Assembly (NCBI GenBank): GCA_934120045.1
Contig: CAKOTF010000009.1
Location: forward strand, 2,509-66,508
Source: an uncultured Clostridia bacterium
GTDB lineage: Bacteria > Bacillota > Clostridia > TANB77 > CAG-508
Reading direction: 5' to 3'
Length of the DNA: 64,000 bases
Below the pieces are notes generated by a model. It worked only from the letters and a program-made list of their open reading frames with translations. It ran no database searches and was not told where the DNA came from. Shown here one piece after another: positions 2,680 through 38,200 of this stretch. The first letter of the stretch is position 1. Every line of letters begins with the position of its first letter. The translations under genes were made by a program, and so were the position numbers.

Positions 2680-2709
2680 TTGACTTTTTGCGTTTAAATG
2701 GATTATAAT
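2680..2709 (+). promoter_or_regulatory. Sigma-A-type promoter TTGACT-N18-TATAAT driving sRNA-like locus copy A
   Basis: -35 at 2680-2685 and -10 at 2704-2709. The same geometry with different flanking sequence is found at copy B. Confidence 0.6.
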
Positions 2710-2715
2710 AATTAT

Positions 2716-2886
2716 AGGAAATGGCAAATCCACAAACGTGTTTTTTGCCGAATAGAGTAAAACTCACATCTACTCGTCAAAGTACAGATGTGAGTTGTTT
2801 TTTATTTATGTAGTTGCTTATCAACCCAGTTCTTATACAGAACTGCTGTCAATGAAACCACATCTGCTAATTCTCATTTCTTATGA
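2716..2886 (+). ncRNA. Unclassified structured sRNA-like locus, copy A (paralog of 25443-25583 on the opposite strand)
   Basis: About 85-90% identity by eye to the reverse complement of copy B outside the hairpin loop. It has its own promoter and an internal hairpin+U tract. No ORF is conserved between the copies. Confidence 0.5.
2761..2806. terminator. Bidirectional hairpin terminator inside copy A
   Basis: 11-bp stem AACTCACATCT/AGATGTGAGTT with a 14-nt loop, followed by GTTTTTTATTT. Confidence 0.6.
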
Positions 2887-2891
2887 CATAC

Positions 2892-2920
2892 ATTCTACAA
2901 TACTATTTCAGATTTGTCCA
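2892..2920 (-). promoter_or_regulatory. Convergent (antisense) promoter TGGACA-N17-TAGAAT firing into copy A
   Basis: Hexamers read on the minus strand. The predicted TSS coincides with the right edge of the conserved block. Confidence 0.4.
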
Positions 2921-2986: not shown

Positions 2987-3296
2987 ATGAAAACTATATT
3001 AGATGATGACTTATCATATTTAATATATTCCATAGTAGAAGAAATCCCTGTTCGGATATGTTGCAACTTATGGTCAAATTGCCAGATTAATTGGAAAGCC
3101 TAAAAATTCAAGATTAGTTGGCAAGGCACTAAAAATGGCTTTTCGTTATGGTGATTTTCCTTGCCACAGAGTTGTAAACCATCAAGGCAGAATTACCCCT
3201 GGATGGCCTGAACAAGTAGATTTACTTAAAGAAGAAGGTGTTACCTTTAAAAATGAATTTTGCGTTGATTTAAAAAAACATCAATGGAATATATAA
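2987..3296 (+). pseudogene. MGMT-family (Atl/YbaZ-like, PCHRV) DNA-binding protein gene disrupted by a frameshift
   Basis: Frame 1 gives MKTILDDDLSYLIYSIVEEIP then a stop at 3101. The +1 frame continues YVATYGQIARLIGKPKNSRLVGKALK...FPCHRVVNHQGRI to 3296. The shift is near 3046-3052. Confidence 0.75.
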
Positions 3297-3338
3297 AAGC
3301 AAACCAGAGAAATTTTAAATTTTCTGATTTGCTTTTTT
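3297..3338 (+). terminator. Hairpin terminator after the MGMT-like pseudogene
   Basis: AAGCAAACCAGAGAAA/TTTTCTGATTTGCTT stem followed by a T run. Confidence 0.5.
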
Positions 3339-3392
3339 ATTTTAAAATATTATCCGCTTCCTCTTGATCTACGTAACTATCAAGTTGCACAT

Positions 3393-3740
3393 CTATTTTG
3401 TATAATTTGCTTGTACTTTTTCTGGTAGCTCATTATATTGTACTTCTTCCCATGAATGAACTCCAAATGTTTTTACTTCCAATTTTAGAAAAGCATCTTC
3501 TTTAAGTTCTCTACTTGTTTTAAACTTCAATTCTCTTTTCTTTCCATTTTCATTATAACAATCTAAAGTATACTCATATTTCATATTATCTGAGCTTGAT
3601 ACTTTTTCTATTTTGGTATTATCAATTTGTGTATAATAAATTGATTTATAATTTTCAAAAAAATACAATCCAGTTACACATATTACAATTGCCACAATCA
3701 CTGCAATAACCATTGGTAATTTTTCTTTTAAATCTTCCAT
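3393..3740 (-). CDS. YxeA-family (DUF1093) small exported protein
   Basis: N-terminal TM segment, then YYTQIDN...YEYTLDCYNENGKKRELKF...GVHSWEEV, typical of YxeA. It lies downstream of a Bce-type ABC pair as in B. subtilis yxdLM-yxeA. Confidence 0.8.
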   Translation of the reverse strand: MEDLKEKLPMVIAVIVAIVICVTGLYFFENYKSIYYTQIDNTKIEKVSSSDNMKYEYTLDCYNENGKKRELKFKTSRELKEDAFLKLEVKTFGVHSWEEVQYNELPEKVQANYTK

Positions 3741-3773: not shown

Positions 3774-5873
3774 CTATTCATCTTCTTTGATAATATTCTT
3801 ACTTCCTAAATAAGTAGCTAAGAAATATATACCATATATGATACCTATAATAATTACTGTCGCAATAGCTGATGGTAATAAATCTTTTTTACTTGCTAAT
3901 CCTGACATTATAGTAATTGCAAATTGTATTCCAAATATAGAATGTATAATTGCAAGAACAAGTGGAACTCCAAAAAATATTCCAATTTGTCTGAATAACG
4001 ATTTATTAATCATTTTTTCATCACAACCAATTTTTCTTAAAATAGTATATCTTTGTCTGTTATCTGAACTATCTGTTAATTGTTTTAAAGCTAAAATAGC
4101 TGAACTTGCAATTAAAAATATAATTCCTAAATAAATTGCTATAAATGTTACAATAGTTGCTAGACCTACACTTGCTTCCATAAGAGCTATTTTCGTTTTT
4201 CCGTCAATATTCAAACCATTTTTATCTAAATTTTGTAAAAGTTCAGAATTATCATCAACAAATATTTTTTCTATCTCTTCTTTTTCCTCTTTAGTATCTG
4301 CATTATAATTTGCAACAAATAAATATTGCTTTTTCATTCTTTCCGTCAATTCACAATCATCTGGAACTAATATAATTCCTGTATTTATATGATTAGTAGA
4401 CATTTGAATATATCCTGTTTTACATTCATTATATTTTGATTTATATTGTTTTCCAACTATATTTAAAACATTATTTCCATCTTTTAATGCTTCATCTCGT
4501 AATTCTTTTTGTGAATCAAAATCACAAAGTACAATATATTCATCATTATTTAATTCATATTGATTAATTCCATATAGTTTTGCAATTTTGTTATAGTCTG
4601 ATATTTTTACTATCTGTTCTGCTGTATTATATAAAAGATTTGGATATCTGGTTTTTATTTCTGCATATTTGTCTCCAAAAAAATCTTTCCAAGTTAAATC
4701 ATCTGTGGAATATACTGTTATTTCCACAATGTCTTTTAAGACATTCATATCTAAGCCATTATTTTTTAAAGTTTCTGTAATAGATATTCTCGAATCAGCC
4801 ATTGCTTCAGCTGTAGATGTAATCTCTTTTCCATAAGTACCATATTGTAAATATTTTTCTGGTAAATTAGCTGTTTTATATAAGTTCAAATCTACAGGGG
4901 TCATTTCGACTAATTCTCTTTGCATTGTATTTCTTAATGCTAAACTTGAAGAAAGTATTGAAATTGTCATAAATAACATTAAACATATTACACTCATACT
5001 TATAACCATTGTATTAATTTTGTTATTTATTTGTCTTAATACAAACATATTTGTATTTTTAAAATAAACATTTTTCATTTTTTGAACTATTTGTATTATA
5101 AATCCTGATAAAGACCAAAAGACTGCTACTGTTCCAACTATTCCCATTAAAATAGGCTGTAAAATTTTATCTGCAGTTGTTAAACTACTAACATCTTCCG
5201 TTACTTTCCAATAAGCATATCCAAGTATAGCTACAGCTCCTAAAAATACTAATATACATATAATTGGATTTTTTATTTTTACATTTTCATTTTTCTTACT
5301 TGCATTTAATAAATCAATTAATTTATATCTTGAAACTGTAAATGTATTAAAGAACATTACTGCCACATACATTACAGCAAAGTAAATACAAGTCTTTATA
5401 CAAGCATCTTTTGAAAATACAAATTGAAACTTGCTCATGTCTGCCTCAAACATTTTAGCAACTAATATTGACATGAATTGTGATGCAAATATACCTATAA
5501 TTAATCCTACAATTAATGATATAATTCCTACTAATATTGTTTCAATTAATATTATTTTTGATATTTGTCTTTTTCCCATTCCAAGTGTCATATATATTCC
5601 AAATTCTTTTTTTCTTCGATTTATTAAGAAATTATTTGCATATACAATTAGTAAACCTAATACTACTGCTACGAATACTGATACATATCCAAGCAATGAA
5701 ATCATAAGTTTTATAATACTTCTTGTTGATTCTGATACTTCTAACATTGCTTGTTGACTATCTATTGAATTAAACATATAAAATATTGCTACACCTAATA
5801 CTAGTGTTAGAAAATAAATTGCATAATCTTTGAAGCTTTTTTTCATATTTCTTATAGATAACTTAAATAACAT
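3774..5873 (-). CDS. BceB-type FtsX-domain ABC transporter permease (10 TM, large extracellular loop)
   Basis: 699 aa. N-terminus MLFKLSIRNMKKSFKDYAIYFLTL, two FtsX blocks, and an 11-nt overlap with the upstream ATPase gene. Confidence 0.9.
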   Translation of the reverse strand: MLFKLSIRNMKKSFKDYAIYFLTLVLGVAIFYMFNSIDSQQAMLEVSESTRSIIKLMISLLGYVSVFVAVVLGLLIVYANNFLINRRKKEFGIYMTLGMGKRQISKIILIETILVGIISLIVGLIIGIFASQFMSILVAKMFEADMSKFQFVFSKDACIKTCIYFAVMYVAVMFFNTFTVSRYKLIDLLNASKKNENVKIKNPIICILVFLGAVAILGYAYWKVTEDVSSLTTADKILQPILMGIVGTVAVFWSLSGFIIQIVQKMKNVYFKNTNMFVLRQINNKINTMVISMSVICLMLFMTISILSSSLALRNTMQRELVEMTPVDLNLYKTANLPEKYLQYGTYGKEITSTAEAMADSRISITETLKNNGLDMNVLKDIVEITVYSTDDLTWKDFFGDKYAEIKTRYPNLLYNTAEQIVKISDYNKIAKLYGINQYELNNDEYIVLCDFDSQKELRDEALKDGNNVLNIVGKQYKSKYNECKTGYIQMSTNHINTGIILVPDDCELTERMKKQYLFVANYNADTKEEKEEIEKIFVDDNSELLQNLDKNGLNIDGKTKIALMEASVGLATIVTFIAIYLGIIFLIASSAILALKQLTDSSDNRQRYTILRKIGCDEKMINKSLFRQIGIFFGVPLVLAIIHSIFGIQFAITIMSGLASKKDLLPSAIATVIIIGIIYGIYFLATYLGSKNIIKEDE

Positions 5874-24925: not shown

Positions 24926-25087
24926 TTTTTTCACTTCTCTTTTTATAAAACTTTTGTTCATATTTTATTATATATTTTTTTGTTTGTCAAGGAATTTTTT
25001 GATAAGTTTGACATTATATTTTTTATATGATATATTATATATTATTATTCGTTTGTATCACTCATTAAAAAAATGGAGGTATATGTT

Positions 25088-25300
25088 ATGAAACTCACTA
25101 ATCCTGGCTTCGCAAGAGTACTTCACAAAAGATCAGACTATCATGAGCCTTTCTATCGTGTTCTTAAAGAAAAAGATATTTTTGAAAATCATTGCCATTG
25201 TTTTGATCATGGTGGTTATGGTTATACACAAGTACCTGTTCCCCAAACTGAACGTTGGATTGTTCATAAGGAAAATGAAGACAATAAAGATAAAAAGTAA
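25088..25300 (+). CDS. Small hypothetical protein (70 aa, His/Cys-containing HCHCFDHGGYGY)
   Basis: GGAGG SD 6 nt upstream and a terminator hairpin at about 25321-25366. No family recognised. Confidence 0.4.
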   Translation: MKLTNPGFARVLHKRSDYHEPFYRVLKEKDIFENHCHCFDHGGYGYTQVPVPQTERWIVHKENEDNKDKK

Positions 25301-25408
25301 GTATCATACTATATAGCAAAAAGAAGCAAATATTACCTAAATTAAGGTTGTATTTGCTTCTTTTACATTTGTCAAACGATATTTTTACGAAAATTTGTTC
25401 TTTTTGTA

Positions 25409-25437
25409 TTGATTTGTTCTTATTTGTATGCTATACT
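25409..25437 (+). promoter_or_regulatory. Convergent (antisense) promoter TTGATT-N17-TATACT (with TG extension) firing into copy B
   Basis: Read directly. The predicted TSS coincides with the edge of the conserved block. Confidence 0.45.
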
Positions 25438-25442
25438 AGTTC

Positions 25443-25583
25443 ACATAGGAAATGATAATAAGCAGATGTGGTTGATAAGTAACTACATAAATAAAAGAAA
25501 GCTCACATCTGTAAATTTGGCGATTTAGATGTGAGTTTTTATATCTATTCGGCAAAACCATGTTTGTGGATTTGTCATTTTCT
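25443..25583 (-). ncRNA. Unclassified structured sRNA-like locus, copy B (inverted paralog of 2716-2886)
   Basis: The reverse complement aligns with copy A from the -10 element to ...CATTTCCTATG. It lacks the roughly 34-nt extra hairpin of copy A. Confidence 0.5.
25498..25540. terminator. Bidirectional hairpin terminator inside copy B
   Basis: The core stem CTCACATCT/AGATGTGAG is shared with copy A, the loop differs, and T-rich tracts lie on both sides. Confidence 0.6.
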
Positions 25584-25589
25584 ATATTT

Positions 25590-25618
25590 ATTATACTGAG
25601 TTTTTATTTTTTTGTCAA
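25590..25618 (-). promoter_or_regulatory. Consensus sigma-A promoter TTGACA-N17-TATAAT driving copy B
   Basis: -35 at 25613-25618 and -10 at 25590-25595, read on the minus strand. Confidence 0.65.
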
Positions 25619-25767
25619 TCCAAATTTTAATTATTTACAACCTCATAATAAAAATAGCAAGCCAAATATATACCATAAATGTGGTGTTGTTTGACTTGCT
25701 ATTTTTTTAAGTTATACCAAATGAGTCTACACACTCATCTGACAATGTGCACTTTTTAGAATAGTTT

Positions 25768-26439
25768 TCATTCTTCATCATCTATAGAATCTTCTATAGC
25801 ATCTATTATACAAGTTAAGAAAATAATATCTTTCATTGAAATATCCGAATCTTGTTTTTTGACGATTTTATAAGAATCTACCATATCAAGCTGTTCGCTA
25901 ATGTTAAACAAAATTTCACCATTTGAAGCATTATATACATTAAATTCATAATATAATGACATAATTTCTTCTTGAGTGTATCCAAGTTCGTTCTTGTTTG
26001 AATCATAAATATGGAAATTATACTTACTCAAAGAAAAGAAATCTGTAAAATATTCTTCTCCTATATATCCAGTTGTATTTCCATCTTGATCCATCAAATT
26101 AGCTAACCTATTTAGTCTTACTCCCCAACGTTTTATTTGCTTTTCTTTAGCAATTTCGTTTCCATTTGCATCTGTAAGAGTGAATATATCACCTGTAATA
26201 TTTACATATTCACCAGATACACTTCCAATCTCCTTTCCATCTACATACACATCGTATGTTTTCGTTAAAGATACAAATCTTTCTTTTACATTTACTGTGG
26301 TTGCTTCTTCAATTAAAGAAGAATAATCTTCTGGTAAAGAACTTTCATCATCTTTTGTATCTTTTATTTCAGAAGAGCACCCAACAAGTAATAATATGAC
26401 AACGATCGCTATTATGCTAAAAAAATACCGTTTTTTCAT
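25768..26439 (-). CDS. Lipoprotein, LURP-one-related/tubby-C-like fold (tentative)
   Basis: Signal peptide with lipobox LLVGC. The body resembles LURP-one-related proteins, a weak by-eye call. Confidence 0.6.
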   Translation of the reverse strand: MKKRYFFSIIAIVVILLLVGCSSEIKDTKDDESSLPEDYSSLIEEATTVNVKERFVSLTKTYDVYVDGKEIGSVSGEYVNITGDIFTLTDANGNEIAKEKQIKRWGVRLNRLANLMDQDGNTTGYIGEEYFTDFFSLSKYNFHIYDSNKNELGYTQEEIMSLYYEFNVYNASNGEILFNISEQLDMVDSYKIVKKQDSDISMKDIIFLTCIIDAIEDSIDDEE

Positions 26440-36184: not shown

Positions 36185-38200
36185 TTAAAATAAAGTTTTT
36201 ATTTTCTTTATTAAATAATGGCTTCCACCTAAATTTCTTCCATTTTCAACCATACTGATTATTAATAATTGATTATCATTTGAATCTGTTGTAAAACAAT
36301 CAAACCATCCTAAAACATCTGCCTCTCCATCTTTTGATGCTTTTAATTCTGCAGTTCCTGTTTTTCCTGCTATTGTTCTTCCTATTACTTTCATATCTTT
36401 AGCTGTTCCTTCTGAATCTTCTACAACTTGAATTAAATCTTCTTTTATTATGTTTGCCGCTTCTTTACTAAAAGCATTTTTTACTAAATATTCTACATTT
36501 TTATTATCTTTTTCTATAATATATGGTTTTACCATATTTCCATCATTGTTAAAGGCTGAATATATAGATGCCATTAGTATTGGATTTACTAAAATTTCTC
36601 CTTGACCATATCCACTATCTGCAAGTACTTTTTCATTTGAAATATCTTTTGAATTTGAATATTGAGATTTGGCTGTTGATATTTCAAGGTTTAAATCTTG
36701 ATTAAATAATATTTTATTTAATCCATCAGTAAAATTCTTTTTTCCAATCTGTAATGCTGCTTGTGCAAAATATATATTATCTGAATGTATTAGAGCATTT
36801 TTTAAATTCTTTGGTCCACTATATGATGTTAATGTTGTTATATCAAATTCTCCCCATCCATCTTTCTTCCAACTAAGTCCATTATATGCAAATGTGTCAT
36901 CAACTGATAATGTTCCTGTTGTAAGCCCTATTGCACCTGTAATTGGTTTAAATGTAGATCCTGGTATATAACTTTGTTGATATCTTACAAACATTGGCTT
37001 ATTTTCATTATTATTAATTTCATTCCATTCATCTGATGTCATTCCTAAAACAAATTTGTTAGGATTATATGATGGTGTACTTACTAGTGCTAATAATTCT
37101 CCAGTATTTGGTTCCATTACAACAAAAAATCCTGCATCATTTTTTAATTCTTCATAAAGTTTTTGCTGAATAGTAGAGTCTATTGTTAATTTTATATTTT
37201 CTCCATTTTTTACATCTATTTTTGCTATTTCTGATTTTCTTTTTCCTTTTTCATCTTCAATATAAATTTCAAGACCATTATTTCCTTTTAATTGTTCTTC
37301 ATATTGTTTTTCTAGTCCTGCTTTTCCTATTAAACTAGTACTTGTATATCCTTTTCCTTTGTTTTTTTCTAATTCCTCTGCTGTTATTGTTTGAACATAT
37401 CCAACTAGTTGTGCTGAAGCTTCTCCTAATGGATACACTCTTGATGTTTCACTTGTAATTTTTATTCCAGATATTTGTAAAACTTTCTCTTTTATTTCTG
37501 TTTCACTTTGTTCTACCTTTTTTATAGGTACAAATGTATCATCTTTTACCCATGATGCTGAAAGTGCTTTATTTATTGTTTCTACTGAAATTCCTAAAAT
37601 GTCAGATATTTGTTGAATTGTTTCTTCTTTATTTTCTGGTAATTTTCCAGGAACAATTCCTATTGATGATACCTTTCCTTCCCCAGCTAGCATTATTCCA
37701 TTCTTATCATCAATTTCTCCTCTTTTTGCTTTTATTGTTTTTACTCTTACTTTGTCAGTACTATTTAACCCCGGCAAAATTAAGTTATGGCTCCATTCAA
37801 TCTTATATTCTCTTTGATCGTTTTTTACTATTCTTACTGTATTTTGAAATTCTACATTTCCTGCACTTGTTTCCATTGTTTCTGTATAATTTATTTTAGA
37901 TATTTTTTTCTCTTCTTCTTCAACATTTGTTATTTGTATATCTAAATTTGCCATATCTATTCCACTATAAATGTTCTCATTTCTTTTTATAAAATCTTCT
38001 TTTGATATCTGAGATTTAGCTGTATCTGTAATCATTTCATACATTTCTTCATATTTTTCTTCATTTATATATGAAATATATTGGTTCCAAATATCTTCTG
38101 GAGTTGTCTTTTCTTTATTAGAAATATAATATGCTACTAATCCTCCTCCAATTAATATTGCAATAATTAAAACAATAATAATAATAATCTTTTTCTTCAT
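36185..38200 (-). CDS. Class B penicillin-binding protein with an NTF2-like (MecA_N-type) N-terminal domain
   Basis: TM anchor and transpeptidase motifs STFK, SDN and KTGTA. Confidence 0.9.
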   Translation of the reverse strand: MKKKIIIIIVLIIAILIGGGLVAYYISNKEKTTPEDIWNQYISYINEEKYEEMYEMITDTAKSQISKEDFIKRNENIYSGIDMANLDIQITNVEEEEKKISKINYTETMETSAGNVEFQNTVRIVKNDQREYKIEWSHNLILPGLNSTDKVRVKTIKAKRGEIDDKNGIMLAGEGKVSSIGIVPGKLPENKEETIQQISDILGISVETINKALSASWVKDDTFVPIKKVEQSETEIKEKVLQISGIKITSETSRVYPLGEASAQLVGYVQTITAEELEKNKGKGYTSTSLIGKAGLEKQYEEQLKGNNGLEIYIEDEKGKRKSEIAKIDVKNGENIKLTIDSTIQQKLYEELKNDAGFFVVMEPNTGELLALVSTPSYNPNKFVLGMTSDEWNEINNNENKPMFVRYQQSYIPGSTFKPITGAIGLTTGTLSVDDTFAYNGLSWKKDGWGEFDITTLTSYSGPKNLKNALIHSDNIYFAQAALQIGKKNFTDGLNKILFNQDLNLEISTAKSQYSNSKDISNEKVLADSGYGQGEILVNPILMASIYSAFNNDGNMVKPYIIEKDNKNVEYLVKNAFSKEAANIIKEDLIQVVEDSEGTAKDMKVIGRTIAGKTGTAELKASKDGEADVLGWFDCFTTDSNDNQLLIISMVENGRNLGGSHYLIKKIKTLF

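Follow-up and report, generated by a model that had tools for sequence, protein, structure and literature searches.

Two short blocks in a 64,000-nt stretch of DNA from an uncultured Clostridia bacterium (hereafter, the window) resemble each other, and each places one hairpin between two convergent promoters, which raises the question of what these blocks encode and whether they are complete. An earlier note on the same DNA had described them as a stand-alone, unclassifiable pair of sRNAs. Comparison with relatives led us to a different answer: the blocks belong to a module that resembles type I toxin-antitoxin systems, and the toxin open reading frame (ORF) of this module has been deleted in both window copies.

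Copy A (2704–2886, plus strand) and the reverse complement of copy B (25443–25595) are identical at 131 of 149 aligned positions (87.9%), within the range of 85–90% that had been estimated by eye, and their alignment contains a single 33-nt gap, located in copy B. A family profile, built from the relatives described below, matches the window at these two copies only (E = 1e-37 and 3.5e-31); a candidate third copy at 37161 was a chance match in a coding region. The blocks end in imperfect terminal inverted repeats, as the earlier note had reported. In each copy, the hairpin is framed by convergent promoters of the sigma-70 type, and a promoter scan found the hexamer pairs of all four promoters, two per block, exactly where they had been placed:

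2680–2709, plus strand: sRNA promoter of copy A, TTGACT-N18-TATAAT
2920–2892, minus strand: promoter of the toxin mRNA remnant of copy A, TGGACA-N17-TAGAAT
25618–25590, minus strand: sRNA promoter of copy B, TTGACA-N17-TATAAT, 12/12 consensus matches
25409–25437, plus strand: toxin-side promoter of copy B, TTGATT-N17-TATACT with an upstream TG

The central hairpin of copy A, AACTCACATCT/AGATGTGAGTT at 2761–2771/2786–2796, has A/T runs on either side, in agreement with the U-rich tracts assigned to it before; a terminator scanner failed to report it for the sole reason that its loop is longer than 8 nt. The proposal that convergent transcription from two promoters towards one bidirectional hairpin would give rise to two RNAs overlapping at their 3' ends is supported, and the RNAs predicted from both strands fold far better than shuffled sequences (z between −3.4 and −5.4). 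The predicted sRNAs and their terminators are as follows:

2716–2808, plus strand: predicted antitoxin-like sRNA of copy A (~93 nt)
2759–2803, both strands: bidirectional intrinsic terminator of copy A, common to both predicted transcripts
25489–25583, minus strand: predicted antitoxin-like sRNA of copy B, with its terminator stem at 25535–25527/25510–25502

In copy A, the sRNA consists of a 5' hairpin (2723–2749) and the terminator hairpin (2761–2796), which is followed by a T-run (2798–2803); the segment 2714–2808 folds with −29.8 kcal/mol (z = −5.35), and the fold of the copy B sRNA has a z of −3.43. The short plus-strand ORF of copy A, for which 11 codons had been given, in fact reads through about 30 codons.

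Relatives were collected by an exact-pattern scan (ATCCACAAACN{2,9}TTGCCGAAT) of one genome per species; of its 109 stretches, roughly half were chance matches in unrelated high-G+C genomes. By profile search, about 57 loci from MAGs of gut Clostridia were confirmed as true members, and about 40 of these are full length at ~275 nt; a second pattern yielded 45 further stretches from metagenomes. All true homologues come from MAGs of uncultured gut "Clostridia / Clostridium sp.", with humans (including Hadza), rabbit, goat, water deer, and mouse as hosts. The loci are syntenic across species groups, and their flanks differ between groups of loci. Compared with the full-length unit of ~275 nt, copy A (~170 nt) and copy B (~140 nt) are short, and the extra conserved sequence of the full-length units lies between the hairpin and the far end. 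The earlier note had assigned the block to no known RNA family; consistent with this, an Rfam scan of the window copies and the full-length relatives, at gathering as well as permissive thresholds, gave chance matches alone (best E about 1–5). The full-length modules matched nothing in phage and plasmid collections, and a literature search on the module architecture returned only papers on sRNAs of Bacillus subtilis and Escherichia coli that have no bearing on the family.

Opposite to the sRNA strand, full-length modules contain a Shine-Dalgarno site (GGAGAGGUGGUG) and a conserved hydrophobic ORF of 37 codons, MVKVILFFIISFMLSLTLNVALTAVLYKNWVDKQLHK, whose stop codon adjoins the hairpin. The length of this ORF is identical in 35 of the 37 unique full-length modules with a readable frame; the remaining two carry an in-frame 12-nt deletion and a frameshift, respectively, and in one further module, the only loss is that of the upstream one of two ATGs. 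As the upstream ATG is absent throughout one subfamily (subfamily b, see below), the second ATG is the real start. Substitutions in the ORF are mostly conservative swaps among the hydrophobic residues V/I/L/F, and variable codon positions number 16 first, 9 second, and 18 third, so that second positions vary least; the coding signal is real but modest. The predicted peptide comprises a hydrophobic stretch of ~25 residues, followed by a tryptophan and a charged tail, and nearly all members read ...AVLYKNW-VDKQLHK, which places the tryptophan between the transmembrane (TM) helix and the charged C-terminus. With the N-extended ORF as query, the peptide was found in 58 unnamed protein clusters without a Pfam domain. 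Searches of Pfam (including the Fst model), NCBIfam, PHROGs, and the PDB gave no match, for Pfam and NCBIfam not even at E ≤ 10, and a literature search with the peptide motif returned no paper. The small (<60 aa) hydrophobic ORF that characterizes type I systems is thus found in the relatives and has been lost by deletion from the window copies.

The RNA architecture of intact modules is equally well conserved. A near-consensus promoter would drive the predicted sRNA of ~95 nt, and a weaker convergent promoter the predicted mRNA of ~230 nt. Among 32 full-length modules, the sRNA promoter has TATAAT in every case together with a TTGACA-like −35 hexamer (mean 11.3/12 matches), while the hexamers of the mRNA promoter, TAGACA/TTGATT and TAGAAT/TATACT, are weaker (mean 9.3/12) and are often joined by an extended −10. 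Both promoters are present in all 32 modules, and because the flanks differ between groups of loci, they are kept by function and not by shared descent of the flank, which bears out the suggestion of the earlier note that selection acts on transcription. The sRNA folds into a 5' hairpin, CAAAUCCAC-AAAC-GUGGUUUUG, and ends in a terminator whose U-tract is good. In the mRNA leader, a GCCACC/GGUGGU helix, paired in 39–42 of 42 sequences, occludes the Shine-Dalgarno site and encloses a UACGA-loop-UCGUA hairpin whose loop varies freely. Compensatory changes occur in this inner hairpin (G-C to A-U in three sequences), in the terminator (C-G to U-A in two sequences), and in the sRNA hairpin, where CCAC/GUGG is replaced by CCGU/ACGG in a divergent tandem paralogue of L074. 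Since the sRNA and the mRNA converge on a common terminator, they share by construction ~50 nt of perfect complementarity.

The divergent paralogue of L074 represents a whole subfamily, b, which is found in 45 metagenome stretches. In L074 itself, a module of subfamily b (3441–3722) and one of subfamily a (3904–4183) stand in tandem about 180 nt apart; the b copy differs in its whole terminator stem and has the compensatory changes in its sRNA hairpin, which looks like a specificity switch between paralogues. The family conserves a terminator stem, for which subfamilies b and c use an entirely different sequence, and the helix over the Shine-Dalgarno site has gained one compensatory base pair in subfamily b and reads CCUCU/GGGAGG in subfamily c. 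The latter subfamily is represented by two metagenome contigs, L144 and L159, with modules around 2382 and 2039, respectively. Its ORF encodes an unrelated hydrophobic peptide of 36 aa, MIEGALLEIIYLLLFGLIAETIIVFALIILVIILSK, on a module that retains its ends, the sRNA scaffold, and the Shine-Dalgarno-sequestering design; the RNA framework thus seems able to carry different cargo.

Alignment with the full-length modules made the residual parts of both window copies recognizable:

2802–2852, minus strand: residual 3' end of the toxin ORF in copy A, that is, the last 16 codons, LTAVLYKNWVDKQLHK, and the stop codon, as identified by alignment to full-length relatives
2853–2886, minus strand: residual 5' leader of the toxin mRNA in copy A, AUAAGAAAUGAGAAUUAGCAGAUGUGGUUU, family model positions 250–277
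25445–25473, plus strand: residual 5' leader of the toxin mRNA in copy B, family model positions 251–278
25470–25474: deletion junction of copy B, with AACC microhomology

In the profile search, copy A covers family model positions 1–141 and 250–277. Its deletion junction lies at about 2852–2855, and the ~108 family positions that it lacks held the Shine-Dalgarno site, both ATGs, and the first 21 codons. This deletion is common to the window strain, UBA10678, and L072, three genomes that are ~98% identical. Two features of copy A acquire a new meaning by this comparison. The segment of 34 nt that had been taken for an insertion private to copy A is conserved in nearly every relative and was lost from copy B; it is not a variable RNA stem, as had been proposed, but the 3' part of the toxin coding sequence. 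Accordingly, the CAGTTCT/AGAACTG hairpin, which is indeed present at 2828–2845, falls inside the residual toxin ORF. At the sRNA end, copy A has two derived changes, GAC to GGC and GTGG to GTGTT, at positions that are otherwise almost invariant in about 45 relatives, and both weaken the 5' hairpin.

On the 3' side of copy A, a gene for an MGMT/ATL-like DNA-binding protein (2987–3295, plus strand; …GYVATYGQIARLIGKPKNSRLVGKAL…FPCHRVVNHQG…) has a +1 frameshift about 20 codons after the ATG; as the context of this frameshift is common to two related MAGs, the gene is either a pseudogene or has a later start. The adjoining ~320 nt (3290–3613) are present in UBA10678 and replaced by a different sequence in the 98%-identical L072; this segment overlaps the 3' end (about residues 42–115) of a 115-aa ORF (3393–3740, minus strand) and the intergenic DNA downstream of it.

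Copy B covers family model positions 1–115 and 251–278, and its history can be read from a close relative. The window is 98% identical to DQFO01000016.1 of MAG UBA10678, which carries both loci (L002 and L085). At the copy B locus (L085), UBA10678 has a full-length module, so the window strain has undergone a 133-nt deletion, which took nearly the whole toxin ORF, the Shine-Dalgarno site, and most of the leader. Compared with this full-length allele, the copy B sRNA has changed from ATAGG to ATAGA and from ACGTGG to ACATGG, and these changes weaken its 5' hairpin as well. At 25476, copy B reads GTTACTTATC where relatives read GTTGCTTATC, so that the toxin frame has a stop codon in place of Gln; with the ORF deleted, this is of no consequence, yet it is a further sign of decay. 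Copy B stands between a lipoprotein gene (25768–26439) and a small ORF (25073–25300), and the ordinary-looking stem-loop terminators of these neighbors (25640–25715 and 25325–25380) flank it, which makes it an insulated unit between two convergent genes.

Loss of the toxin is not confined to the window. Further independent lesions that destroy the toxin and leave the sRNA recur elsewhere in the family, as deletions in L087 (between TTATC repeats), L143, L137, L026, L068, L030/L109, and L123/L145, and as a frameshift in the toxin ORF of L018. Part of the surplus of toxin-less loci over those without an antitoxin is an ascertainment effect, because our searches started from the sRNA; among loci found by way of the toxin, the sRNA is present in four of four.

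Taken together, these results indicate that a chromosomal module of the type I toxin-antitoxin kind has probably decayed in both window blocks. The homology, the deletions, the ORF, and the conservation of promoters and structure can be read directly from the aligned sequences; from them, we infer that the peptide is toxic, that the promoters are active, and how the two RNAs would pair. In an intact module, the weaker promoter would produce an mRNA of ~230 nt for a membrane-type peptide of 37 residues, with the Shine-Dalgarno site locked in a 5' stem-loop, and the strong convergent promoter would produce an sRNA of ~95 nt. Both RNAs would start at ATAGGAAAUGA motifs and end at the hairpin, and since a single bidirectional terminator ends both of them, their 3' ~50 nt are perfectly complementary. 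The layout is that of par(pAD1) loci, and on these grounds the sRNA would be expected to pair with the last ~50 nt of the toxin mRNA, thereby preventing toxin synthesis; pairing at the terminator may either block or destabilize the mRNA. In the window, microhomology-type deletions removed the toxin ribosome-binding site and start codon; copy A lost 21 codons with them, and copy B almost all. This would leave the antitoxin sRNA gene as an orphan, along with the terminator and with a promoter that can yield no more than a short non-coding remnant of the toxin leader (~100–130 nt). The sRNA changes at almost invariant positions in both copies fit relaxed constraint.

The most substantial rival to decay is that the orphan sRNA is kept by selection, either as a trans-acting antitoxin that confers anti-addiction or immunity against intact paralogues or incoming modules, or as a regulator recruited to other targets. 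Both window copies have kept near-consensus promoters, the 5' hairpin, and the terminator; toxin-less loci that bear the sRNA recur in several genomes; and UBA10678 combines a toxin-less copy A with an intact copy B 22 kb away, the terminator stems of the two being identical. Yet the sRNA of copy A has changed, in a way that weakens its 5' hairpin, where about 45 relatives are almost invariant, copy B has two such changes relative to an allele from a genome that is 98% identical, and the terminator loops of A and B differ. Moreover, copy A differs at 3 of ~190 nt among the three ~98%-identical strains, which equals the genome background of ~2% and so, at this low divergence, gives no sign of extra constraint, and in copy B, too little time has passed since the deletion for survival of the remainder to require selection. 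The data are therefore compatible with a selected orphan antitoxin without supporting it, and we consider this reading unlikely, if deserving of some weight. It is a question about the remnants; a separate one concerns the peptide, which might be benign, for instance a small membrane protein with a role in the membrane or in stress that is under cis-antisense control, so that its loss from the window would be ordinary gene decay. The toxicity of the peptide is a prediction, it has no homology to any validated toxin in Pfam, NCBIfam, PHROGs, or the PDB, and its sequence is devoid of the Fst-like P/D/S/T-xxx-G motif. Against this stand the co-occurring hallmarks of type I systems, namely a strong sRNA and a weak mRNA promoter, a sequestered Shine-Dalgarno site, and a 3' overlap at a bidirectional terminator. 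Genomes carry one to three paralogous copies, in tandem in L074, the recurrent deletions take the ORF and spare the sRNA, and the unrelated 36-aa hydrophobic ORF that subfamily c carries on the same RNA scaffold fits interchangeable toxic cargo. A benign peptide fits recurrent ORF loss and swapped cargo less well than a toxin does, and we regard it as improbable.

Two further readings concern the nature of the block as such. Homology among copies and relatives is bounded by imperfect inverted repeats of ~35 bp (ATAGGAAATGAC... / ...TCATTTCCTAT) within flanking DNA that differs between loci, as would be expected of non-autonomous MITE-like elements, and the earlier note had named a MITE as an outcome that would overturn its reading. 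Yet there are only two copies in 64 kb and at most two stretches per assembly in the scan, neither window copy has target-site duplications, no phage or plasmid record matches, and the loci keep their synteny across species groups. Random insertion would also not be expected to place promoters just outside the repeats at every locus, and the interior holds a conserved peptide and structured RNAs in place of transposase remnants; that the blocks are mobile elements is extremely unlikely. A riboswitch or attenuator on the plus-strand RNA was rejected, as the conserved sequence 3' of the terminator is the antisense of the coding region and leads to no regulated gene.

With the blocks read as toxin-deleted remnants, two sequence repeats within the family call for comment. 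A direct repeat links the toxin leader to the 5' arm of the terminator; in the window, it is found at 2763–2771 and, as CACATCTG in the residual leader of copy A, at 2860–2867, where the earlier note had placed this second occurrence. The alternative pairing that had been derived from it, CAGATGTG/CACATCTG, turns out to be a conserved and co-varying feature of the family, with CAGAUGUGG and CUCACAUCUG as partners in subfamily a, GUGGAACGGUUU and AAACCAUUCUAC in subfamily b, and GCAGAACGGUUU and AAACCAUUCUGC in subfamily c. The statistic for this pairing is weak (12/14 pairs compared with a shuffled mean of about 10.3), and the co-varying direct repeat suggests a possible 5'–3' interaction within the toxin mRNA.

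The terminal inverted repeats, for their part, mean that both predicted RNAs begin with nearly identical ~35 nt (AUAGGAAAUGA ... GUGGUUUUGCC). The two ends change in concert: L032/L050/L064 have GAGAAUGA at either end, as subfamily b has ACGG. Even subfamily c, where the toxin ORF is an unrelated one, has retained the terminal repeats. In several members, the U-tract on the toxin strand is poor, and a read-through transcript is predicted to form a long panhandle between the module ends. The repeats may owe their existence to such a panhandle, to a shared leader bound by a protein, or to gene conversion. It is conceivable, albeit quite unlikely, that the family has a control logic beyond that of par-like loci, in which the terminal repeats provide both convergent RNAs with a shared leader of ~35 nt. 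In one version, a read-through toxin transcript could be locked in a hok-like 5'–3' fold that is opened or targeted by the sRNA; in another, one cellular factor may recognize the shared leader on both RNAs. If so, the window copies would have kept an activity despite the loss of the toxin, as loci for an orphan antitoxin and a decoy leader.

The analysis renders an unclassifiable repeat interpretable and exposes a type I toxin-antitoxin-like family that Pfam, NCBIfam, and Rfam do not contain. Its modules occur widely among uncultured gut Clostridia of low G+C content, in humans as well as in rabbits and ruminants, and RNA regulation in these bacteria is almost uncharted. The alleles of the family form a natural series of toxin losses, one of which is polymorphic between strains (the window strain and UBA10678), and this series could serve for studying the decay of chromosomal type I modules. 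The conserved terminal inverted repeats of the family are unusual and are not accounted for by present models of how par-like loci are regulated. In genome annotation, such remnants are best recorded as toxin-antitoxin pseudogenes or orphan antitoxins and not as novel sRNAs.

Several known systems share parts of this design. In hok, the toxin mRNA is inhibited by a long-distance fold-back between its 5' and 3' ends; likewise, the toxin leader of the family co-varies with the 3' terminator arm, and the module ends may form a panhandle. There is no sequence relation to hok/sok, and the fold-back in the family is a prediction with weak statistics. In the txpA/RatA and bsrG/SR4 systems of Bacillus subtilis, the genes for the toxin mRNA and the antitoxin sRNA converge, and complementarity is confined to the 3' ends of the two RNAs; this holds for the family as well, where the antitoxin would similarly act through the overlap. 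In contrast to these systems, the overlap of the family amounts to only ~50 nt, the terminator itself, and its peptide is unrelated to theirs; the family loci showed no prophage context.

The closest match is par(pAD1), a type I locus of Firmicutes whose toxin belongs to the Fst/Ldr superfamily. This locus and its chromosomal relatives have convergent promoters, a bidirectional intrinsic terminator that yields complementary stem-loops, and a 5' stem-loop over the Shine-Dalgarno site, and toxins of the Fst/Ldr type have a signature of a hydrophobic helix, a conserved tryptophan, and a charged C-terminus (PMC7472228). The family shares with par(pAD1)/Fst-RNA II the convergent promoters, a toxin mRNA of ~230 nt whose 3' end overlaps that of a short sRNA at a bidirectional terminator, the 5' stem-loop that sequesters the Shine-Dalgarno site in intact modules, a predicted toxin of 30–40 aa with a hydrophobic helix, a tryptophan, and a charged C-terminus, and the occurrence of chromosomal paralogues. 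It differs in that its peptides do not have the P/D/S/T-xxx-G(C) motif in the TM helix and do not match the Pfam Fst model, and in that its sRNA is longer (~95 nt compared with ~40 nt in par). Complementarity of the DRa/DRb type over the toxin start was not found: duplexes of the sRNA 5' domain with the translation initiation region score no better than shuffled sequences (z between −0.8 and +0.6), nor do those with the leader, and cross-subfamily duplexes are about as good as cognate ones. Instead, the only direct repeat of the family joins the toxin leader and the terminator arm, and both RNAs share a common 5' sequence of ~35 nt that is not described for par. The family is thus an undescribed one within the par-like type I toxin-antitoxin modules and does not constitute a new kind of sRNA locus.
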